NCBI RefSeq assembly: GCF_017348835.2
Contig: NZ_CP071375.1
Strand: one strand, 5' to 3'
Length of the DNA stretch: 64,000 nt
Origin: Escherichia coli
Lineage (GTDB): Bacteria > Pseudomonadota > Gammaproteobacteria > Enterobacterales > Enterobacteriaceae
Part shown: positions 2,820-53,000 of the stretch, in pieces
Position numbering within the stretch: position 1 is the first letter of the stretch
How the letters are laid out: the number at the start of each line of letters is the position of its first letter
Position numbers and translations under genes: made by a program
The notes under the pieces: model-generated
The model's input: the letters and a program-made list of their open reading frames with translations, nothing else
Told to the model about the DNA's origin: nothing
Database searches by the model: none

Positions 2820-3922
2820 TACAGAGGTCTCGCAATAGTATCAGGCTCATCACGATTGAAAATTTCGTTTGCCCAGAGCATAACTATTAATTCATCATTG
2901 CCAACATTCGTGACGTCATGGGTCCAGCCGGGTACTGTTTCAACGATTTTGAACTCATCGGATGAAACATTCAGTTCATAACGTTCACCGGTAATCACAT
3001 GTTCGAATTTGAAGCACGCCTGTCCACGGATGACCAGGAACTTCTCATTTTTGGTGTGATGATAATGCCCACCACGCGTTATACCGGGATGCGCTGTGAA
3101 AAATGAAAACTGCCCCGCTGAAGGCGTTTTTAACATCTCACAAAAGATCCCGCGGGCATCACCATAGGACGGCACCGTATAAGCAAACTTTTCGGCTGGT
3201 AAGTAACTTAACCACGTCGAATATAGCGCTCGGGTCATTCCCGTCCCCACAGCTTCTGTGACAAGCGTAGAACGACTCTCCTTGAAACGATAAAGTAATT
3301 CCGCCACCTCACCAACTGTCGTTGAGTAAACCGGCACAACGCCTTTATATCCGCTATGAACCTCTCCTGTGAGAAGTTTTATCGCATGTGTGCAAACGTC
3401 ATCGATATAAACCAGATTAACCGGTGCCGAAGGGTCATTGATGGTTATGTCAATATTGTTGGCAATGTTATGGCAGAAGGTAGCCACGAACGAGTTATAG
3501 TTCGGTTTACACCATTTACCAAAAACATTTGGGTACCGATAGATATAATATGCTGCACCACTTTCTGCTGCATAACGCTCAATTTGTTTTTCAGCTGCAG
3601 CCTTACTCTGACCATACGCATTATCCAGTTCAGCCTGGATCGAAGAACTGATCATAATAGGTATGCTTTTGTTCTTCGCTAACAGAGAATCCACAATCTG
3701 CTGAGTAAAATTGCAATTCCCTTCGACAAACTCTTCGACATTTTTAGGTCGATTGATACCCGCAAGGTGATAAATGAAATCCGCATCTTGCAGGCCAATT
3801 TCAAGCTCGGCCGCACTTGAGTCACGGTCAATCTTAACAAGGTCAACATACCCTGCTTCCTGAAGGCGTAAGCACAAGTTACGTCCGATAAAGCCATCAG
3901 CTCCAGTAATCAGGATTTTCAT
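2819..3922 (-). CDS. fnlB: FnlB/Cap5F-type reductase of the UDP-L-FucNAc pathway
   Basis: Rossmann N-terminus [16 protein letters not shown]. The ORF track starts 11 codons upstream (3955); the internal ATG at 3920-3922 lies 1 nt after the fnlA stop and is the likelier start. Confidence 0.8.
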
Positions 3923-44188: not shown

Positions 44189-45772
44189 ATGGAATGGATT
44201 GCCGATCCGTCTATCTGGGCCGGGTTAATCACGCTGATTGTGATCGAACTGGTCCTCGGCATTGATAACCTGGTCTTTATTGCCATCCTCGCCGAAAAAC
44301 TACCGCCGAAGCAGCGCGACCGCGCACGGGTTACCGGGCTGCTGCTGGCGATGTTAATGCGCCTGTTACTGCTGGCGTCAATCTCCTGGCTGGTCACCCT
44401 GACTCAACCGCTGTTCAGCTTCCGCTCGTTTACCTTTAGCGCCCGCGACTTAATCATGCTGATTGGTGGTTTCTTCCTGTTGTTCAAAGCCACGATGGAG
44501 CTGAACGAACGGCTGGAAGGGAAAGACAGCAATAATCCCACACAACGCAAAGGTGCGAAGTTCTGGGGCGTGGTGACACAAATTGTGGTACTGGACGCCA
44601 TCTTCTCACTCGACTCAGTGATTACCGCCGTCGGGATGGTCGACCATTTACTGGTCATGATGGCCGCCGTGGTTATCGCTATCAGCCTGATGTTGATGGC
44701 CAGCAAGCCGTTAACGCAATTTGTTAACAGTCACCCGACGATCGTTATTCTCTGCTTAAGCTTCCTGTTGATGATTGGCTTTAGTCTGGTGGCAGAAGGT
44801 TTCGGTTTCGTCATTCCGAAAGGCTACCTGTACGCTGCCATTGGTTTCTCGGTGATGATCGAGGCGCTCAATCAGTTGGCTATCTTTAACCGGCGACGTT
44901 TTCTTTCCGCTAACCAGACGCTGCGCCAGCGGACTACCGAAGCGGTAATGCGCCTGCTTAGCGGGCAAAAAGAGGATGCGGAACTGGACGCCGAAACCGC
45001 GTCCATGCTGGTGGATCATGGTAACCAGCAGATCTTTAATCCGCAGGAACGGCGGATGATTGAGCGGGTACTTAATCTTAACCAGCGTACCGTCAGCAGC
45101 ATTATGACGTCGCGCCACGATATTGAGCATATCGATCTCAACGCGCCGGAAGACGAGATCCGCCAGTTGCTGGAGCGAAATCAGCATACGCGGCTGGTGG
45201 TTACCGACGGTGATGACGCAGAAGATTTGCTCGGTGTTGTTCACGTTATCGACCTGCTACAACAGTCACTGCGCGGCGAACCGCTCAACCTGCGGGTGTT
45301 GATTCGCCAGCCGCTGGTGTTCCCGGAAACCTTGCCATTGTTACCTGCCCTGGAGCAGTTCCGTAATGCCCGCACACACTTTGCTTTTGTGGTGGATGAG
45401 TTTGGTTCAGTGGAAGGGATTGTGACATTAAGTGACGTCACTGAAACCATTGCCGGTAACTTACCGAACGAAGTGGAAGAGATCGACGCCCGCCATGATA
45501 TTCAGAAGAATGCGGACGGATCCTGGACGGCGAATGGTCATATGCCGCTGGAAGATCTGGTGCAATATGTGCCGCTGCCGCTGGATGAAAAACGTGAATA
45601 TCACACCATTGCCGGGCTGTTGATGGAGTATTTGCAGCGTATTCCAAAACCTGGCGAAGAAGTTCAGGTGGGGGATTATTTGCTTAAAACGTTGCAGGTA
45701 GAAAGCCATCGCGTGCAGAAGGTGCAAATTATTCCGCTTCGTAAGGATGGCGAGATGGAGTACGAGGTGTGA
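44189..45772 (+). CDS. yegH: Inner-membrane protein YegH (TerC-family membrane domain + CBS pair + CorC/HlyC C-terminal domain)
   Basis: Protein [34 protein letters not shown]...; the ORF track begins 13 codons upstream (44150). Confidence 0.9.
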
Positions 45773-45778
45773 TAAAAC

Positions 45779-45817
45779 ATCAAATGCGCAGGTTCAAACT
45801 GCGCATTTGATTTATAC
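45779..45817 (+). terminator. Rho-independent terminator-like hairpin downstream of yegH
   Basis: Perfect inverted repeat atcaaatgcgcag / ctgcgcatttgat with loop gttcaaa, followed by ttat. Confidence 0.55.
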
Positions 45818-45846
45818 AAAATTTAGTATAATCTAAGGATGGAGTA

Positions 45847-46185
45847 ATGAGAAAAAAGCTGGCTTTTCTTGATACCAGTCTTGACGATTTACGCGCATTT
45901 CCAGAATCGTCTCGACAGGAAATTGGCTATCAACTCGACAGGATCCAACAAGGGTTAAACCCATACGACTGGAAACCTTTTTCAACTATCGGCCCTGGTG
46001 TGCGAGAGATTCGTACTCGCGATGCTGATGGGATCTATCGCGTCATGTATGTCGCAAAATTTGAAGAAGCGGTTTACGTATTGCATTGTTTTCAAAAGAA
46101 AACACAGACTACCAGTCAATCGGATATTGATTTAGCCAAACGACGCTATAAAGAACTTGTTCAGGAGCGGAAAAATGAAAATTGA
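45847..46185 (+). CDS. Type II toxin, RelE/ParE-superfamily (HigB-like, Gp49-type)
   Basis: 112-aa ORF with the RelE-fold hallmark ...YRVMYVAKFEEAVYVLHCFQKKTQTT...; followed by, and overlapping by 11 nt, an XRE-HTH ORF (toxin-first order as in higBA). Confidence 0.7.
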   Translation: MRKKLAFLDTSLDDLRAFPESSRQEIGYQLDRIQQGLNPYDWKPFSTIGPGVREIRTRDADGIYRVMYVAKFEEAVYVLHCFQKKTQTTSQSDIDLAKRRYKELVQERKNEN

Positions 46186-46465
46186 AACCTTTGATAGTGT
46201 GTGGGATGCGGTGAGTGACACCCCTGAACAAGCGGAAAATATGCGGATCCGTGCCGAGCTTGTAACGATCATTAATAACTGGATTGAACAACAAGGGATT
46301 AGCCAGGCTCAGGCAGCTTCTGCTTTAGGGGTCACTCAACCTCGCATCTCTGAACTTGCCAGAGGTAAAATCCAGATCTTTAGTATCGATAAATTGATCA
46401 CCATGATGGCTCATGCAGGACTACATATTCAACGTATTGAAGTTCAATATCCACATGCTGCTTAG
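46175..46465 (+). CDS. XRE-family HTH antitoxin (HigA-like)
   Basis: HTH segment QAQAASALGVTQPRISELARGK; likely start MKIETF at 46175 (the ORF track starts 6 codons upstream), overlapping the toxin stop. Confidence 0.65.
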   Translation: MKIETFDSVWDAVSDTPEQAENMRIRAELVTIINNWIEQQGISQAQAASALGVTQPRISELARGKIQIFSIDKLITMMAHAGLHIQRIEVQYPHAA

Positions 46466-46478
46466 TGCTATAAATACA

Positions 46479-46504
46479 GATGGCGACAAATTGATGCCGC
46501 CATC
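46479..46504. terminator. Possible bidirectional terminator hairpin between the antitoxin gene and asmA (convergent)
   Basis: Inverted repeat gatggcg ... cgccatc followed by tatata; weak. Confidence 0.3.
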
Positions 46505-46517
46505 TATATAACTTGTC

Positions 46518-48371
46518 TTACATCTTCTCCAGCAACTTCTTCACATCTTTGCCATTGCGGGAATCTTTATTCCGCTCGGCCCAGTCATTCAGGCGACGTT
46601 TCGCTTCGTCCTGTAGATGTTTGCGCAGTAACTGATCCACTTGCAGACTGTAATTGAGTTGCTGCCAGTTGCCATAAACCCGCAGCGGTACTGGCGTTTC
46701 TTTGAGGAAATCAATCAGTTTGCTTTCCCCGTTCCAGCCACCCACGACCCGAATATCAAACTGGGTGTCGCAGGTTTGATCTGCCAGATTCAACATACCT
46801 TCCCCTGTCAACGCCAGCACAGGCGATTGACCTTGCATGTCGTTTAACGTCACGACGCCATCCTTCAACGTCAAATCGGTGGTAAAGCGGTCAAGACGCG
46901 TCACGTTATCGAAGTTTTCAGCGGCCTTCACATCACCACCATTACGTTCTACCGCTTGCTGAATCATCTGCTGGAAGTTCATCCCTTCCATGCGCGTATC
47001 GGCCATTTCGACATGCGCCGTCCCCTGCCAGTTGTGGCGGAATGCGTCGGCATCTATGTCAGCACCGGAGAAATCACCAGCCAGTGACATCTTTCCGGTC
47101 AACGAAATCGGATAGTTAAACGCCTTCAGAATGGTGCCAATCTCAACGTTTTCCAGCCGTGGCTGGAAGTTTATCCGCGGATTTATTGATGTCGCGTCCA
47201 GCGTGCCCGGCAGTGAAACCTGTCCACCGTTAAGTTTGCCCTGCAGTTGAGTAATTTCCAGCAAACCCGACTTGTTGGTCATTTGCGTGGCAACATCTGT
47301 AAAATTCATTCCGCGCCAGCGCACGTTACTGGCCTGCAACAAAATATCAGCCGTAAAGCCTTGCAGTCCCTGATAGGCCGGTTCATCAATACGCGAAGAA
47401 ATGACCGGGCGCGGCAACGTTGATTGGCTCTGCCCCTGCTGCGCGGCACCGTTTTCACCATTCGCGGTTTCATTAAGCGGGATGAGGTTGTCAAGATTCA
47501 GTTGCGGGAATTGCAGCCTCAGCTGCCATTCCGGTTTCTCTGTCAGCGTGACCTGTGCTTGCCCGCTCAGCGTACTATCATTGGCGGTCAAACTAATTTG
47601 GTTAAATGAAAGGCGTTTATGTGACTCCTGCCACTGGGCCTGGAAACTCCCCTGCCCCTGAATACCTTGTTTTGGTAAATCTGCACCCTGCAACTGCCAG
47701 TTAATTTGTTCAATAGCCGCCGTTAAATCATGCGGATAATCAGAAGCATCTACCGTACCGTTAAGGGATATCGTGAGATCGCGCTGATCGCGATTAACCC
47801 GCCCGGAGAACTCAAATGAGCCACGATGTTGGGGATCTTGTTCCATTTGCAGGCGGATATTGCGGATTGTCACCTGCTCGTCATCTTCATGCTGGAACAC
47901 CAGAACGCTGTCCGCCACCTTAAGACTGGATATATCAAACGACCATCCGCGATCGTCTGACAGATCCGGCAAGGTATTGTCGCGCGGTGCAACCGGAGCG
48001 TCTTCACTGCGCACCGCTTCCGTCTGCGGCGTCAGTTGGATCACTGCCCCTTTTAGCATCACCTGCTTAACGCTCAGTTGATGACTCAGTAGTGGTAAAA
48101 GCGCCACGTCCAGGCGCATGTTGTCGGCGCGAACCAGTGGCTGGCTCGCGCCCTGGGCGGTGAGAGACATTCGCCCGGAGAGGATACTAAGCTGCGGCCA
48201 GACGTGCCAACGCAGTGGCCCGTCGAGCTGCAATTGATAACCGCTACGTGCAGCAACTTGCTTGACCATATAGTCGCGGAAATCATTCGGATTCACCAGC
48301 AACACTAACGCAGATAACCCGGCCACCAGCACGACCAGGAGTATCATCAGCGTCGTCAGAAATCGTCTCAT
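46518..48371 (-). CDS. asmA: AsmA (outer-membrane assembly / AsmA-like family protein)
   Basis: 617-aa ORF with N-terminal membrane anchor (MRRFLTTLMILLVVLVAGLSALVLL) recognised as AsmA. Confidence 0.9.
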   Translation of the reverse strand: MRRFLTTLMILLVVLVAGLSALVLLVNPNDFRDYMVKQVAARSGYQLQLDGPLRWHVWPQLSILSGRMSLTAQGASQPLVRADNMRLDVALLPLLSHQLSVKQVMLKGAVIQLTPQTEAVRSEDAPVAPRDNTLPDLSDDRGWSFDISSLKVADSVLVFQHEDDEQVTIRNIRLQMEQDPQHRGSFEFSGRVNRDQRDLTISLNGTVDASDYPHDLTAAIEQINWQLQGADLPKQGIQGQGSFQAQWQESHKRLSFNQISLTANDSTLSGQAQVTLTEKPEWQLRLQFPQLNLDNLIPLNETANGENGAAQQGQSQSTLPRPVISSRIDEPAYQGLQGFTADILLQASNVRWRGMNFTDVATQMTNKSGLLEITQLQGKLNGGQVSLPGTLDATSINPRINFQPRLENVEIGTILKAFNYPISLTGKMSLAGDFSGADIDADAFRHNWQGTAHVEMADTRMEGMNFQQMIQQAVERNGGDVKAAENFDNVTRLDRFTTDLTLKDGVVTLNDMQGQSPVLALTGEGMLNLADQTCDTQFDIRVVGGWNGESKLIDFLKETPVPLRVYGNWQQLNYSLQVDQLLRKHLQDEAKRRLNDWAERNKDSRNGKDVKKLLEKM

Positions 48372-50024: not shown

Positions 50025-53000
50025 ATGAGCAAACAATCACAGCATGTATTAATTGCCCTGCCCCACCCGCTGCTTCACCTGGTCAGTTTAGGTTTAGTCT
50101 CGTTTATCTTCACCCTTTTCTCGCTTGAGCTTTCGCAGTTTGGCACCCAACTCGCCCCACTGTGGTTCCCGACGTCCATCATGATGGTGGCGTTTTATCG
50201 CCATGCCGGGCGCATGTGGCCGGGAATTGCGCTGAGCTGTTCGCTGGGAAATATCGCCGCATCCATCCTGCTTTTTTCCACCAGCTCGCTGAACATCACC
50301 TGGACGACCATCAATATTGTTGAAGCCGTGGTCGGGGCAGTGCTGCTACGTAAATTGCTGCCGTGGTATAACCCCTTGCAAAATCTGGCTGACTGGCTGC
50401 GTCTGGCACTCGGCAGCGCCATTGTTCCGCCTCTGTTGGGGGGTGTTCTTGTTGTCCTGCTGACGCCCGGAGACGATCCTCTCAGGGCATTTTTGATATG
50501 GGTACTGTCAGAATCCATCGGCGCTCTGGCACTGGTGCCGCTGGGATTGTTATTTAAACCACACTATCTGCTGCGCCATCGCAACCCACGGTTGCTTTTT
50601 GAGTCGCTGCTCACGTTAGCCATCACACTGACGTTAAGCTGGCTTTCGATGCTGTATCTGCCGTGGCCTTTTACTTTCATTATTGTGCTGTTGATGTGGA
50701 GCGCCGTGCGCCTGCCACGAATGGAAGCTTTTTTGATCTTCCTTACCACGGTGATGATGGTGTCACTGATGATGGCCGCGGATCCCTCCCTGCTTGCTAC
50801 GCCGCGTACGTACCTGATGAGCCATATGCCGTGGCTACCGTTTTTGCTGATCCTGCTGCCCGCCAACATCATGACCATGGTGATGTATGCCTTTCGTGCG
50901 GAACGCAAACACATTTCCGAAAGCGAAACCCGCTTTCGGAACGCGATGGAATATTCCGCTATCGGTATGGCGTTAGTGGGCACCGAGGGACAATGGCTGC
51001 AATCCAACAAAGCGCTCTGCCAGTTTCTCGGTTACAGTCAGGAAGAGCTGCGCGGACTCACCTTTCAGCAACTGACCTGGCCGGAGGATCTCAATAAAGA
51101 TCTCCAACAGGTTGAAAAGCTGATAAGCGGTGAAATAAACACCTATTCAATGGAAAAACGCTACTACAACCGTAATGGCGATGTTGTCTGGGCGTTGCTT
51201 GCCGTCTCACTGGTGCGCCACACGGATGGCACGCCGCTCTATTTTATCGCTCAGATTGAAGACATTAACGAGCTAAAACGCACCGAACAGGTGAATCAGC
51301 AACTGATGGAACGCATCACGCTGGCTAACGAAGCGGGCGGGATTGGCATCTGGGAGTGGGAGTTGAAGCCGAATATTTTTAGCTGGGATAAGCGGATGTT
51401 CGAGCTGTATGAAATTCCTCCACATATCAAACCGAACTGGCAGGTGTGGTACGAGTGCGTGCTGCCGGAAGATCGCCAGCATGCCGAAAAAGTGATTCGT
51501 GATTCGTTGCAATCACGCTCGCCCTTTAAACTGGAATTTCGCATTACCGTAAAAGACGGTATTCGCCATATCCGCGCCCTCGCCAACCGGGTACTGAATA
51601 AAGAAGGCGAAGTCGAACGCCTGCTCGGCATTAATATGGATATGACCGAGGTTAAACAGCTTAACGAGGCATTGTTTCAGGAAAAAGAGCGCCTGCACAT
51701 TACGCTTGATTCCATCGGTGAAGCCGTGGTCTGTATTGATATGGCGATGAAAATTACCTTTATGAATCCGGTGGCGGAGAAGATGAGCGGCTGGGCGCAG
51801 GAAGAAGTATTAGGTGTTCCGCTCCTGACGGTGTTGCATATTACTTTTGGCGACAACGGACCATTAATGGAGAACATTTACAGTGCCGACACCTCACGTT
51901 CCGCGATCGAACAAGATGTGGTGTTGCACTGTCGGAGCGGCGGCAGTTACGACGTGCATTACAGTATTACGCCGTTAAGTACTCTGGACGGCAGCAATAT
52001 TGGTTCGGTTCTGGTGATTCAGGACGTTACCGAATCACGCAAAATGCTGCGCCAGCTGAGCTACAGCGCCTCCCATGATGCACTGACGCATCTCGCCAAC
52101 CGCGCCAGTTTTGAGAAACAACTGCGTATCCTGCTGCAAACGGTAAACAGTACGCATCAGCGACATGCACTGGTGTTTATCGATCTTGATCGCTTTAAAG
52201 CGGTGAATGACAGCGCCGGGCATGCGGCGGGCGACGCTTTGCTGCGCGAACTGGCGTCGTTGATGCTGAGTATGCTGCGCTCCAGTGACGTGCTGGCGCG
52301 GCTCGGCGGTGATGAATTTGGTCTGCTGCTGCCAGACTGCAATGTTGAAAGCGCTCGTTTTATCGCTACACGTATTATCAGTGCTGTGAATGACTATCAC
52401 TTTATATGGGAAGGCCGGGTACATCGGGTAGGTGCCAGCGCCGGGATTACCTTGATCGATGACAACAATCATCAGGCGGCAGAAGTGATGTCGCAGGCTG
52501 ATATCGCCTGTTATGCCTCCAAAAATGGTGGACGGGGCCGGGTGACGGTTTACGAACCACAGCAAGCTGCCGCACATAGCGAACGGGCGGCGATGTCGCT
52601 TGATGAACAGTGGCGGATGATTAAAGAGAATCAGTTGATGATGATCGCCCACGGTGTCGCTTCGCCGCGGATCCCGGAAGCGCGTAATTTGTGGCTGATT
52701 TCACTTAAGCTCTGGAGTTGCGAAGGCGAGATTATTGATGAACAAACATTTCGTCGTAGCTTCAGCGATCCGGCGCTTAGCCATGCTCTTGACCGCCGGG
52801 TATTCCACGAATTTTTCCAGCAGGCCGCAAAAGCGGTTGCCAGTAAAGGCATAAGCATCGCCCTCCCCCTTTCCGTTGCCGGTTTGAGTAGCGCCATGCT
52901 GGTGAATGACCTGGTTGAGCAGCTGGAAAATAGCCCTCTACCACCACGGTTATTACATCTGATTATTCCGGCTGAAGCGATTTTAGATCACGCAGAAAGC

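Follow-up and report, generated by a model that had tools for sequence, protein, structure and literature searches.

The window, as the whole 64-kb stretch of Escherichia coli DNA analysed here is called, contains the genes wza (-), yegH (+), toxin (+), antitoxin (+), asmA (-), and dcd (-) in this local order. The product of yegH is 527 aa long in the RefSeq annotation of strain PE164, which shows 100% identity to the window across the 1.7 kb that were tested, and the TGA of yegH is followed by a TAA. Two hairpins lie between yegH and asmA, one on each side of the toxin-antitoxin (TA) pair. The coordinates of these features are collected in Table 1.

Table 1. Features of the yegH-asmA locus; positions are counted from the first letter of the window
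Feature	Position	Strand	Description
yegH	44189..45772	+	Core gene; TerC/CBS/CorC membrane protein (Pfam TerC, CBS, CorC_HlyC); stop codon TGA at 45770-45772
Left homology breakpoint	45773..45775		From the alignment: TGAT/AA in TA-bearing alleles, TGAT/GG in TA-less alleles
Allele-specific filler	45775..45806		Missing in the TA-less alleles and in every foreign homologue of the cassette that was recovered
Hairpin 1	45779..45811	+	Stem of 13 perfect bp around a 7-nt loop; resembles a terminator on either strand
TTGATT, -35-like	45807..45812	+	Shares its first 5 nt with the end of the 3′ arm of hairpin 1; 14 nt from TATAAT
Operator-like palindrome	45812..45831		TTATAC-AAAATTTA-GTATAA; one mismatch to the 18-nt consensus TATACAAAATTTTGTATA
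TATAAT, well-supported -10	45827..45832	+	Overlaps the right half of the palindrome; TATAaT kept at the same register in the family
Mini-ORF ATG GAG TAA	45840..45848	+	7 nt past the -10; stop overlaps the toxin ATG (TAATG)
Toxin gene	45847..46185	+	112 aa; Gp49/DUF891 (PF05973), RelE/ParE superfamily, Tad/HigB-like; WP_001227701.1
Antitoxin gene	46175..46465	+	96 aa; HTH_37 (PF13744), Ata/HigA-like; Pfam E = 1.5e-21, RefSeq
Hairpin 2	46474..46509	-	Inverted repeat flanked by the stop codons of the antitoxin gene and of asmA
Right homology breakpoint	46517..46520		From the alignment: asmA stop codon, TTA here and CTA in K-12-type alleles
asmA	46518..48371	-	Core gene, transcribed towards yegH and the TA pair; Pfam AsmA, RefSeq

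Both TA genes are already annotated in RefSeq. An earlier reading of the letters, made without database searches (the sequence-only reading), had taken the two genes for a toxin-antitoxin pair, and the Pfam matches to PF05973 (E = 1.2e-30, 105.8 bits versus a cut-off of 23.9) and PF13744 bear this out and make the pair a type II module. The toxin gene comes first and is overlapped by the antitoxin gene over 11 nt. On its domains, the cassette is classified as a Tad-Ata/HigBA-like type II pair with a Gp49 toxin and an HTH_37 antitoxin. Tad-Ata modules correspond to COG4679/COG5606 and have the toxin gene in first position, as far as Dziewit 2007 is cited in PMC2701414, and Gp49/HTH_37 pairs have been described as “reverse-order” HigBA-like type II modules (PMC7157771). 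No sequence-level match to the toxin is present in the PDB, and the nearest PDB sequence to the antitoxin is the HTH protein 2a6c. Decay of the toxin is common, and the antitoxin is intact where the neighbour was inspected (fM51a, L100/L101). The decayed forms include a frameshift in fM51a, a 104-aa variant, and an 82-aa truncation found on 326 contigs. Such truncations and frameshifts beside an intact antitoxin are consistent with a toxin that was once active.

Hairpin 2 is probably the asmA terminator, because its predicted fold is much stabler as minus-strand RNA (-23.0 kcal/mol) than as plus-strand RNA (-13.6 kcal/mol).

Hairpin 1 has the same orientation as yegH, begins 6 nt past its TGA, and nearly fills the 39 nt that separate the yegH stop codon from the regulatory region of the cassette. 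The perfect 13-bp hairpin that the sequence-only reading had put behind yegH is present as described: the 5′ arm (ATCAAATGCGCAG, 45779-45791), the loop (GTTCAAA, 45792-45798), and the 3′ arm (CTGCGCATTTGAT, 45799-45811) give 13 perfect pairs out of 13, six of which are G-C. A GC-rich core (UGCGCAG/CUGCGCA) is enclosed between complementary A-rich and U-rich tracts, and in the outermost 5 bp of the stem the TTGAT of the cassette pairs with an ATCAA located just past the yegH stop. The RNA is predicted to fold with -20.0 kcal/mol on the plus strand and -18.5 kcal/mol on the minus strand. In an 86-nt context the fold has a z of -5.25, and none of 200 shuffles folds equally well. Perfect hairpins with a stem of at least 10 bp number only two in the 64-kb window, and hairpin 1 is the longest; each of 20 shuffles contained zero to two of them. 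The other one, at 50915-50941, has an 11-bp stem (TTCCGAAAGCG-aaacc-CGCTTTCGGAA).

In bidirectional terminators, complementary A-rich and U-rich tracts lie on either side of a GC-rich core. Hairpin 1 possesses the stem-loop of an intrinsic terminator and the location behind a stop codon, and its T-tail depends on how the stem is read. Counting the outer A:U pairs into the tract gives both strands a T-tail score of 3.18, which corresponds to the 98.9th percentile of window positions; past the full stem, the score is 2.2 on the plus strand and 2.08 on the minus strand. The plus-strand tail beyond the full 13-bp stem, TTATACAA, has too few T for the terminator rule, so that a terminator can be called on this strand only if the outer A:U pairs are taken as the U-tract. 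The minus-strand tail, GTTTTATC, passes the rule, and this minus-strand reading of hairpin 1 is the sole match of the terminator scan in the region.

No Rfam family matches hairpin 1 at threshold. The best hit is STnc40, with 21 bits versus a gathering score of 45, and this sub-threshold match was set aside as the generic likeness of one hairpin to another. Further copies of hairpin 1 are likewise missing from the window, in which three matches with at most two mismatches were found against 2.95 expected, two of them being its own arms. A dispersed repeat or REP element is ruled out, as hairpin 1 is single-copy and occupies one place per genome, only at the yegH locus.

The 3′ arm of the hairpin runs into the promoter region. 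The sequence-only reading had proposed here a TTGATT/TATAAT promoter pair with a short spacer and a TATAAT-like -10 about 15 bp before the toxin ATG. Both motifs are present, the spacer is 14 nt, and the TATAAT ends 14 nt ahead of the ATG at 45847. The -10 half of this proposal is well supported, because TATAAT is conserved across the toxin family. The other half is less convincing, as TTGATT, spaced 14 nt from the -10, does not make a canonical -35, and the operator-like palindrome that fills the spacer had been missed. A sigma-70 scan, which requires a spacer of 16-18 nt, found no plus-strand promoter and did not call TTGATT/TATAAT.

The family pattern was drawn from the upstream regions of homologous toxins at 82 loci outside E. 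coli, belonging to Proteobacteria, Acidobacteria, and Actinobacteria. Of these loci, 73 have the palindrome TATACAAAATTTTGTATA just upstream of the toxin. Their -10, TATAaT, overlaps the right half of the palindrome, and 17 nt upstream of this -10 lies a TTGCC -35. The slot of this family -35 in the window (45804-45809) reads CATTTG and is taken up by the hairpin arm. A TTGnnT abutting the palindrome is also seen in Salmonella L094 (TTGAAT) and in L108 (TTGCTT). Type II TA modules are typically autoregulated through palindromes in their promoters (PMC5906591), and the palindrome of the window is probably an operator, to which the dimeric HTH antitoxin would bind.

Between the -10 and the toxin, the mini-ORF contains a GGAG and is preceded by an AAGGA at 45835-45839. 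An in-frame ATG occurs 5-8 nt past the -10 in 57 of 63 members of the toxin family, which suggests that the toxin mRNAs of the family are usually leaderless. The mini-ORF of the window may serve termination-reinitiation coupling, or it may simply hold the GGAG as a ribosome-binding site. At the equivalent position, a Cedecea homologue (L013) has ATG GAG TGA.

The distribution of this arrangement was followed in 5,426 complete E. coli genomes. With a 1.7-kb query, the flanking genes were found in 5,415 of them, and 844 genomes match most of the query. A 91-bp junction probe, which covers the end of yegH, the hairpin, the promoter, and the start of the toxin, matches 792 genomes (~15%) with an identity of at least 97.8%. 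The hairpin-bearing junction is always single copy in these genomes and always adjoins yegH. Carriers include O157:H7, O55:H7, UTI89, APEC O1:K1:H7, and E. coli W.

The sequence-only reading had regarded the terminator-promoter arrangement as the joint between core sequence and an acquired TA cassette, and had named an alignment without any indel at this position as the result that would speak against it. The alignment shows a discontinuity: 792 of the 5,426 genomes carry the junction, and the others have unrelated intergenic sequence. The alleles of the window, K-12, ZH063, TUM13066, PEC389, and EC21Z-063 were aligned for this comparison. Homology breaks on the left at the yegH stop codon, between 45774 and 45775, and identity returns at the asmA stop (~46517). 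The yegH-asmA spacer of the window measures 745 bp (45773-46517), and its alternatives measure 67 bp in TUM13066 (with one REP), 273 bp in K-12, 292 bp in PEC389, and 451 bp in ZH063. As judged from these alignments, the polymorphism is a swap of the whole yegH-asmA spacer and not a clean insertion. The joint thus stands as a real boundary, but of a spacer that was replaced as a whole.

The usual marks of an inserted element are missing from the locus. No empty site is found, as the TA-less genomes carry unrelated sequence of 67-451 bp between the same two stop codons. No target-site duplication is present, and no direct repeat spans both junctions. Terminal inverted repeats are also lacking, hairpins 1 and 2 being unrelated in sequence. 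No transposase, integrase, or recombinase gene lies between yegH and asmA, where the two TA genes are the only ones. A discrete mobile element (IS, transposon, integron cassette, or islet) was rejected on the empty site, on the duplication and inverted repeats, and on the recombinase.

The sequence-only reading had also placed the hairpin on the core side of the joint, and this part does not hold. The left break precedes hairpin 1 by 4 nt (TGAT/AA), which leaves the hairpin on the variable side. Hairpin 1 is absent from the TA-less alleles of K-12, ZH063, TUM13066, and PEC389, and also from E. fergusonii, E. whittamii, and another Escherichia species. Its 5′ arm, its loop, and most of its 3′ arm are contained in the allele-specific filler. 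Hairpin 1 is therefore assigned to the TA allele and not to the conserved yegH core, because core homology ends before it.

The cassette has relatives outside E. coli. The closest toxin, 86% identical, is encoded on a short Logan contig (L099). Two Salmonella toxins are 82% and 79% identical at the amino acid level; one lies beside an IncFII repA and the other near a TraX-like gene, and both copies are apparently plasmid-borne. The toxin of L108 is 80% identical and is located 12 nt downstream of a PTS EIIC stop codon; this locus (590-650) has the operator but lacks the hairpin. This subclade therefore also occurs directly behind a co-oriented gene with no terminator in between. Copies on Pantoea plasmids share ~71% of their amino acids. 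In the GTDB representatives, no close homologue is found on any Escherichia or Salmonella chromosome, and the best match is again Pantoea, at 71%.

The 13-bp hairpin is absent from all foreign relatives with visible upstream sequence. DNA homology to the Pantoea plasmids begins at position 45813 of the window. The palindromes of L094 and L108 are identical or near-identical to that of the window, and because these two loci share both the palindrome and the TTGnnT, the homology of the cassette family reaches back to ~45807. Some homologues elsewhere have terminators of their own in front of the operator; an example from another bacterium is L035, with a classical terminator (GGGCGCC...GGCGCCCTTTTT) just upstream.

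The E. coli records with the cassette in PLSDB include the 438-kb pNJS001-2 (NZ_CP114132.1, L009), the 43-kb NDM2 unnamed3 (NZ_CP083887.1, L007), and the 365-kb CP137936.1 (full match). The first carries the whole wza-yegH-TA-asmA-dcd-udk block, and the 43-kb record carries asmA and dcd. These records were not accepted as independent junctions, since the surrounding chromosomal genes are present in the two that were inspected. The L009 and L007 “plasmids” are probably chromosome fragments or misassemblies and not true plasmid copies.

The GC content of the cassette is 41-44%, versus 50-56% in its flanks. The E. fergusonii, E. whittamii, and other Escherichia sp. genomes that were examined lack the cassette and have a ZH063-type element between yegH and asmA instead. 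Together with the plasmid-borne relatives, with these absences, and with the missing close homologues in the GTDB representatives of Escherichia and Salmonella, the low GC content lends partial support to a foreign origin of the cassette, and to this extent the word “acquired” in the sequence-only reading may be kept. The acquisition was probably not recent, however. In L099, which represents a deep Escherichia-like lineage, the cassette lies directly beside asmA, and a hairpin of different sequence (GCGGATGGCGC-aacactt-GCGCCATCCGC) takes the position of hairpin 2. The contig begins inside the operator; a search with its antitoxin yielded just one more truncated contig, and an exact-pattern scan of JGI metagenomes for its left junction found nothing. 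Compared with the window, the DNA of L099 is 82-83% identical in the toxin-antitoxin genes and 78% in asmA, and its AsmA protein is 83% identical; AsmA of E. coli is 88% identical to that of E. fergusonii or E. whittamii. Because the cassette of L099 adjoins asmA, the cassette would have been at this site since before a deep split, or would have been exchanged very long ago. Cassette alleles of different E. coli phylogroups differ by 1.7-1.9% and the flanks by 3-4%. The acquisition is thus probably ancient, and much of the present polymorphism may reflect loss or replacement.

A hybrid allele bears on the same point. Subtracting the 792 junction carriers from the 844 genomes that match most of the 1.7-kb query leaves about 52 that lack the left junction. 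The one inspected among them, EC21Z-063, has a ZH063-type element joined to the toxin from about codon 57 (L004 774-1664), with the antitoxin intact and hairpin 2 kept. As aligned, this allele shows that an alternative element overwrote a pre-existing cassette, and it supports the view that the cassette is not recent.

The alternative alleles hold a structured element of ~350 bp, in ZH063 (L002, 774-1224) and in K-12 (L001, 774-1046). The same element is found in E. fergusonii (L103), E. whittamii (L105), and another Escherichia species (L106), at 3355-3888. Its match to the Rfam family TwoAYGGAY reaches 31.9 bits, below the gathering score of 43, and its loops read ATGGAC and ATGGAT. E. coli ZH063 and E. 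fergusonii share 98.5% identity over the entire 451-bp spacer that contains it. The element is inverted and lies between two inverted REPs in E. whittamii and the other Escherichia species. It may be an invertible or mobile element, perhaps one that encodes a noncoding RNA. In E. fergusonii CP042945 an IS110-family transposase occupies the asmA-yegH gap (L104 3903-4854), which is further evidence that the spacer is an insertion hotspot. The yegH-asmA spacer appears as an old polymorphic site common to Escherichia species.

Little variation is seen in hairpin 1 itself. The only arm variant is a C to T change in the 5′ arm, belonging to the CRE78 junction haplotype, whose 91 bp are matched exactly in 53 genomes; a loop variant occurs in one genome. 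The arm variant keeps a U.G pair in plus-strand RNA and produces an A.C mismatch in minus-strand RNA. This mildly favours a role as plus-strand RNA, the wobble-preserving change being a single event. The near-invariance of the 33 nt is not evidence of selection, because the neutral expectation is equally low: with the cassette differing by ~1.8% between lineages, ~0.6 changes are expected per 33 nt, and about one is seen.

On balance, hairpin 1 is probably an intrinsic-terminator-like structure that insulates yegH and the cassette promoter from each other, possibly in both directions. It would act as RNA. On the plus strand, yegH transcripts would end at the hairpin, and read-through would be kept out of the autoregulated TA promoter. 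On the minus strand, the hairpin would stop antisense or divergent transcripts arising in the palindromic promoter region from entering yegH. The stable GC core, the tracts on both of its sides, and the position behind the stop codon argue for this reading.

The alternative that deserves most attention, although it is unlikely, is that hairpin 1 is a neutral scar or filler at a recombination joint, originating as a template-switched quasi-palindrome or as carry-over from the donor. Such an origin fits the place of the hairpin, precisely in the gap from where core homology ends (45774) to where cassette-family sequence begins (45807), and it fits the fact that the hairpin is found nowhere else, that its conservation does not exceed the neutral expectation, and that L108 has no hairpin despite lying 12 nt past the stop of its upstream gene. 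However, a perfect 13-bp stem is very unlikely to arise by chance, the GC core with its A/U flanks 6 nt past a stop is the layout of a terminator, and the sole mutation seen in an arm is compatible with wobble pairing.

The hairpin could also work mainly on the minus strand, and we give this a rather low probability. There it would terminate a short transcript started from the TATACT in the operator, yielding a ~45-nt hairpin RNA or merely stopping divergent transcription. A promoter-like site (TTCTCA-17-TATACT, 45853 to 45825) does exist on this strand, and the only regional matches of the promoter scan and of the terminator scan are both minus-strand. Yet shuffles lead one to expect 2.6 promoter-like matches, against the one seen, the arm variant leaves its A.C mismatch on precisely this strand, and the STnc40 score of 21 bits versus 45 assigns the RNA to no Rfam family at threshold.

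It is doubtful, with a slim chance at best, that hairpin 1 is a double-stranded DNA site for a dimeric protein, either a second antitoxin/TA operator or the target of a host regulator of the cassette promoter. The idea draws on the overlap of the hairpin with the -35-like TTGATT, on its filling of the slot in which the family has its TTGCC -35, and on the common regulation of type II TA promoters through palindromes (PMC5906591). The arms, however, share nothing with the operator half-sites TATAC/GTATA, and every homologous cassette lacks the hairpin; for these two reasons hairpin 1 is not regarded as regulatory DNA of the family. In addition, the variant of 53 genomes breaks the symmetry of the DNA and keeps the pairing of the RNA. 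Finally, a native core terminator of yegH with the cassette inserted downstream, which the position directly behind the yegH stop codon might recall, is barely credible and was rejected, as hairpin 1 is restricted to the 792 genomes with the cassette junction and is absent from all TA-less E. coli alleles and from E. fergusonii, E. whittamii, and another Escherichia species, which diverge right after TGAT.

An intrinsic-terminator-like structure thus remains the preferred reading of hairpin 1. A more speculative proposal, to which only a slight probability is attached, is that a palindrome born at the junction displaced the family -35 and left a weak promoter, so that TA expression would partly come from yegH transcripts leaking through the hairpin. 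If true, an attenuator-like coupling would link a host membrane-protein gene with an addiction module, and the attenuator might work with the mini-ORF, which is sited where most family members start leaderless.

The value of these results is mainly one of annotation. They give the exact limits of an accessory TA allele present in ~15% of complete E. coli genomes, and they identify the probable operator TATACAAAATTTTGTATA of a large and barely studied Tad-Ata subfamily. The yegH-asmA spacer is of modest interest for the persistence and decay of toxin-antitoxin cassettes. A literature search on the locus retrieved no paper in which yegH, asmA, and toxin-antitoxin occur together. A hairpin at the left edge of an optional TA cassette is an ordinary arrangement of a known type, and nothing in the analysis of the locus would surprise a specialist.

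Three known systems can be compared with the locus. As in the variable intergenic regions of E. coli that contain REP/BIME sequences, the yegH-asmA spacer exists in REP-containing alleles (of 67, 273, 292, and 451 bp), and its breakpoints fall exactly at the flanking stop codons; the window allele differs in being protein-coding and without REP, and its hairpin 1 is single-copy. With Rho-independent terminators, hairpin 1 shares a stable GC-core stem-loop, an upstream A-rich and a downstream T-rich tract, a start 6 nt past a stop codon, and a layout that can be read on both strands. It departs from them in its U-tract, which is interrupted (UUUGAUUUAU) and largely absorbed into the 13-bp stem, and its plus strand fails the simple T-tail rule. 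The cassette itself resembles other Tad-Ata or Gp49-HTH_37 modules in the order of its overlapping genes, PF05973 toxin first and PF13744 HTH antitoxin second, in the -10 overlapped by a palindrome, and in having relatives on plasmids. Unlike these, the copy of the window is chromosomal, sits at one fixed intergenic site between two bounding hairpins, and has a -35 region with a spacing of 14 nt where the consensus of the family is 17 nt.
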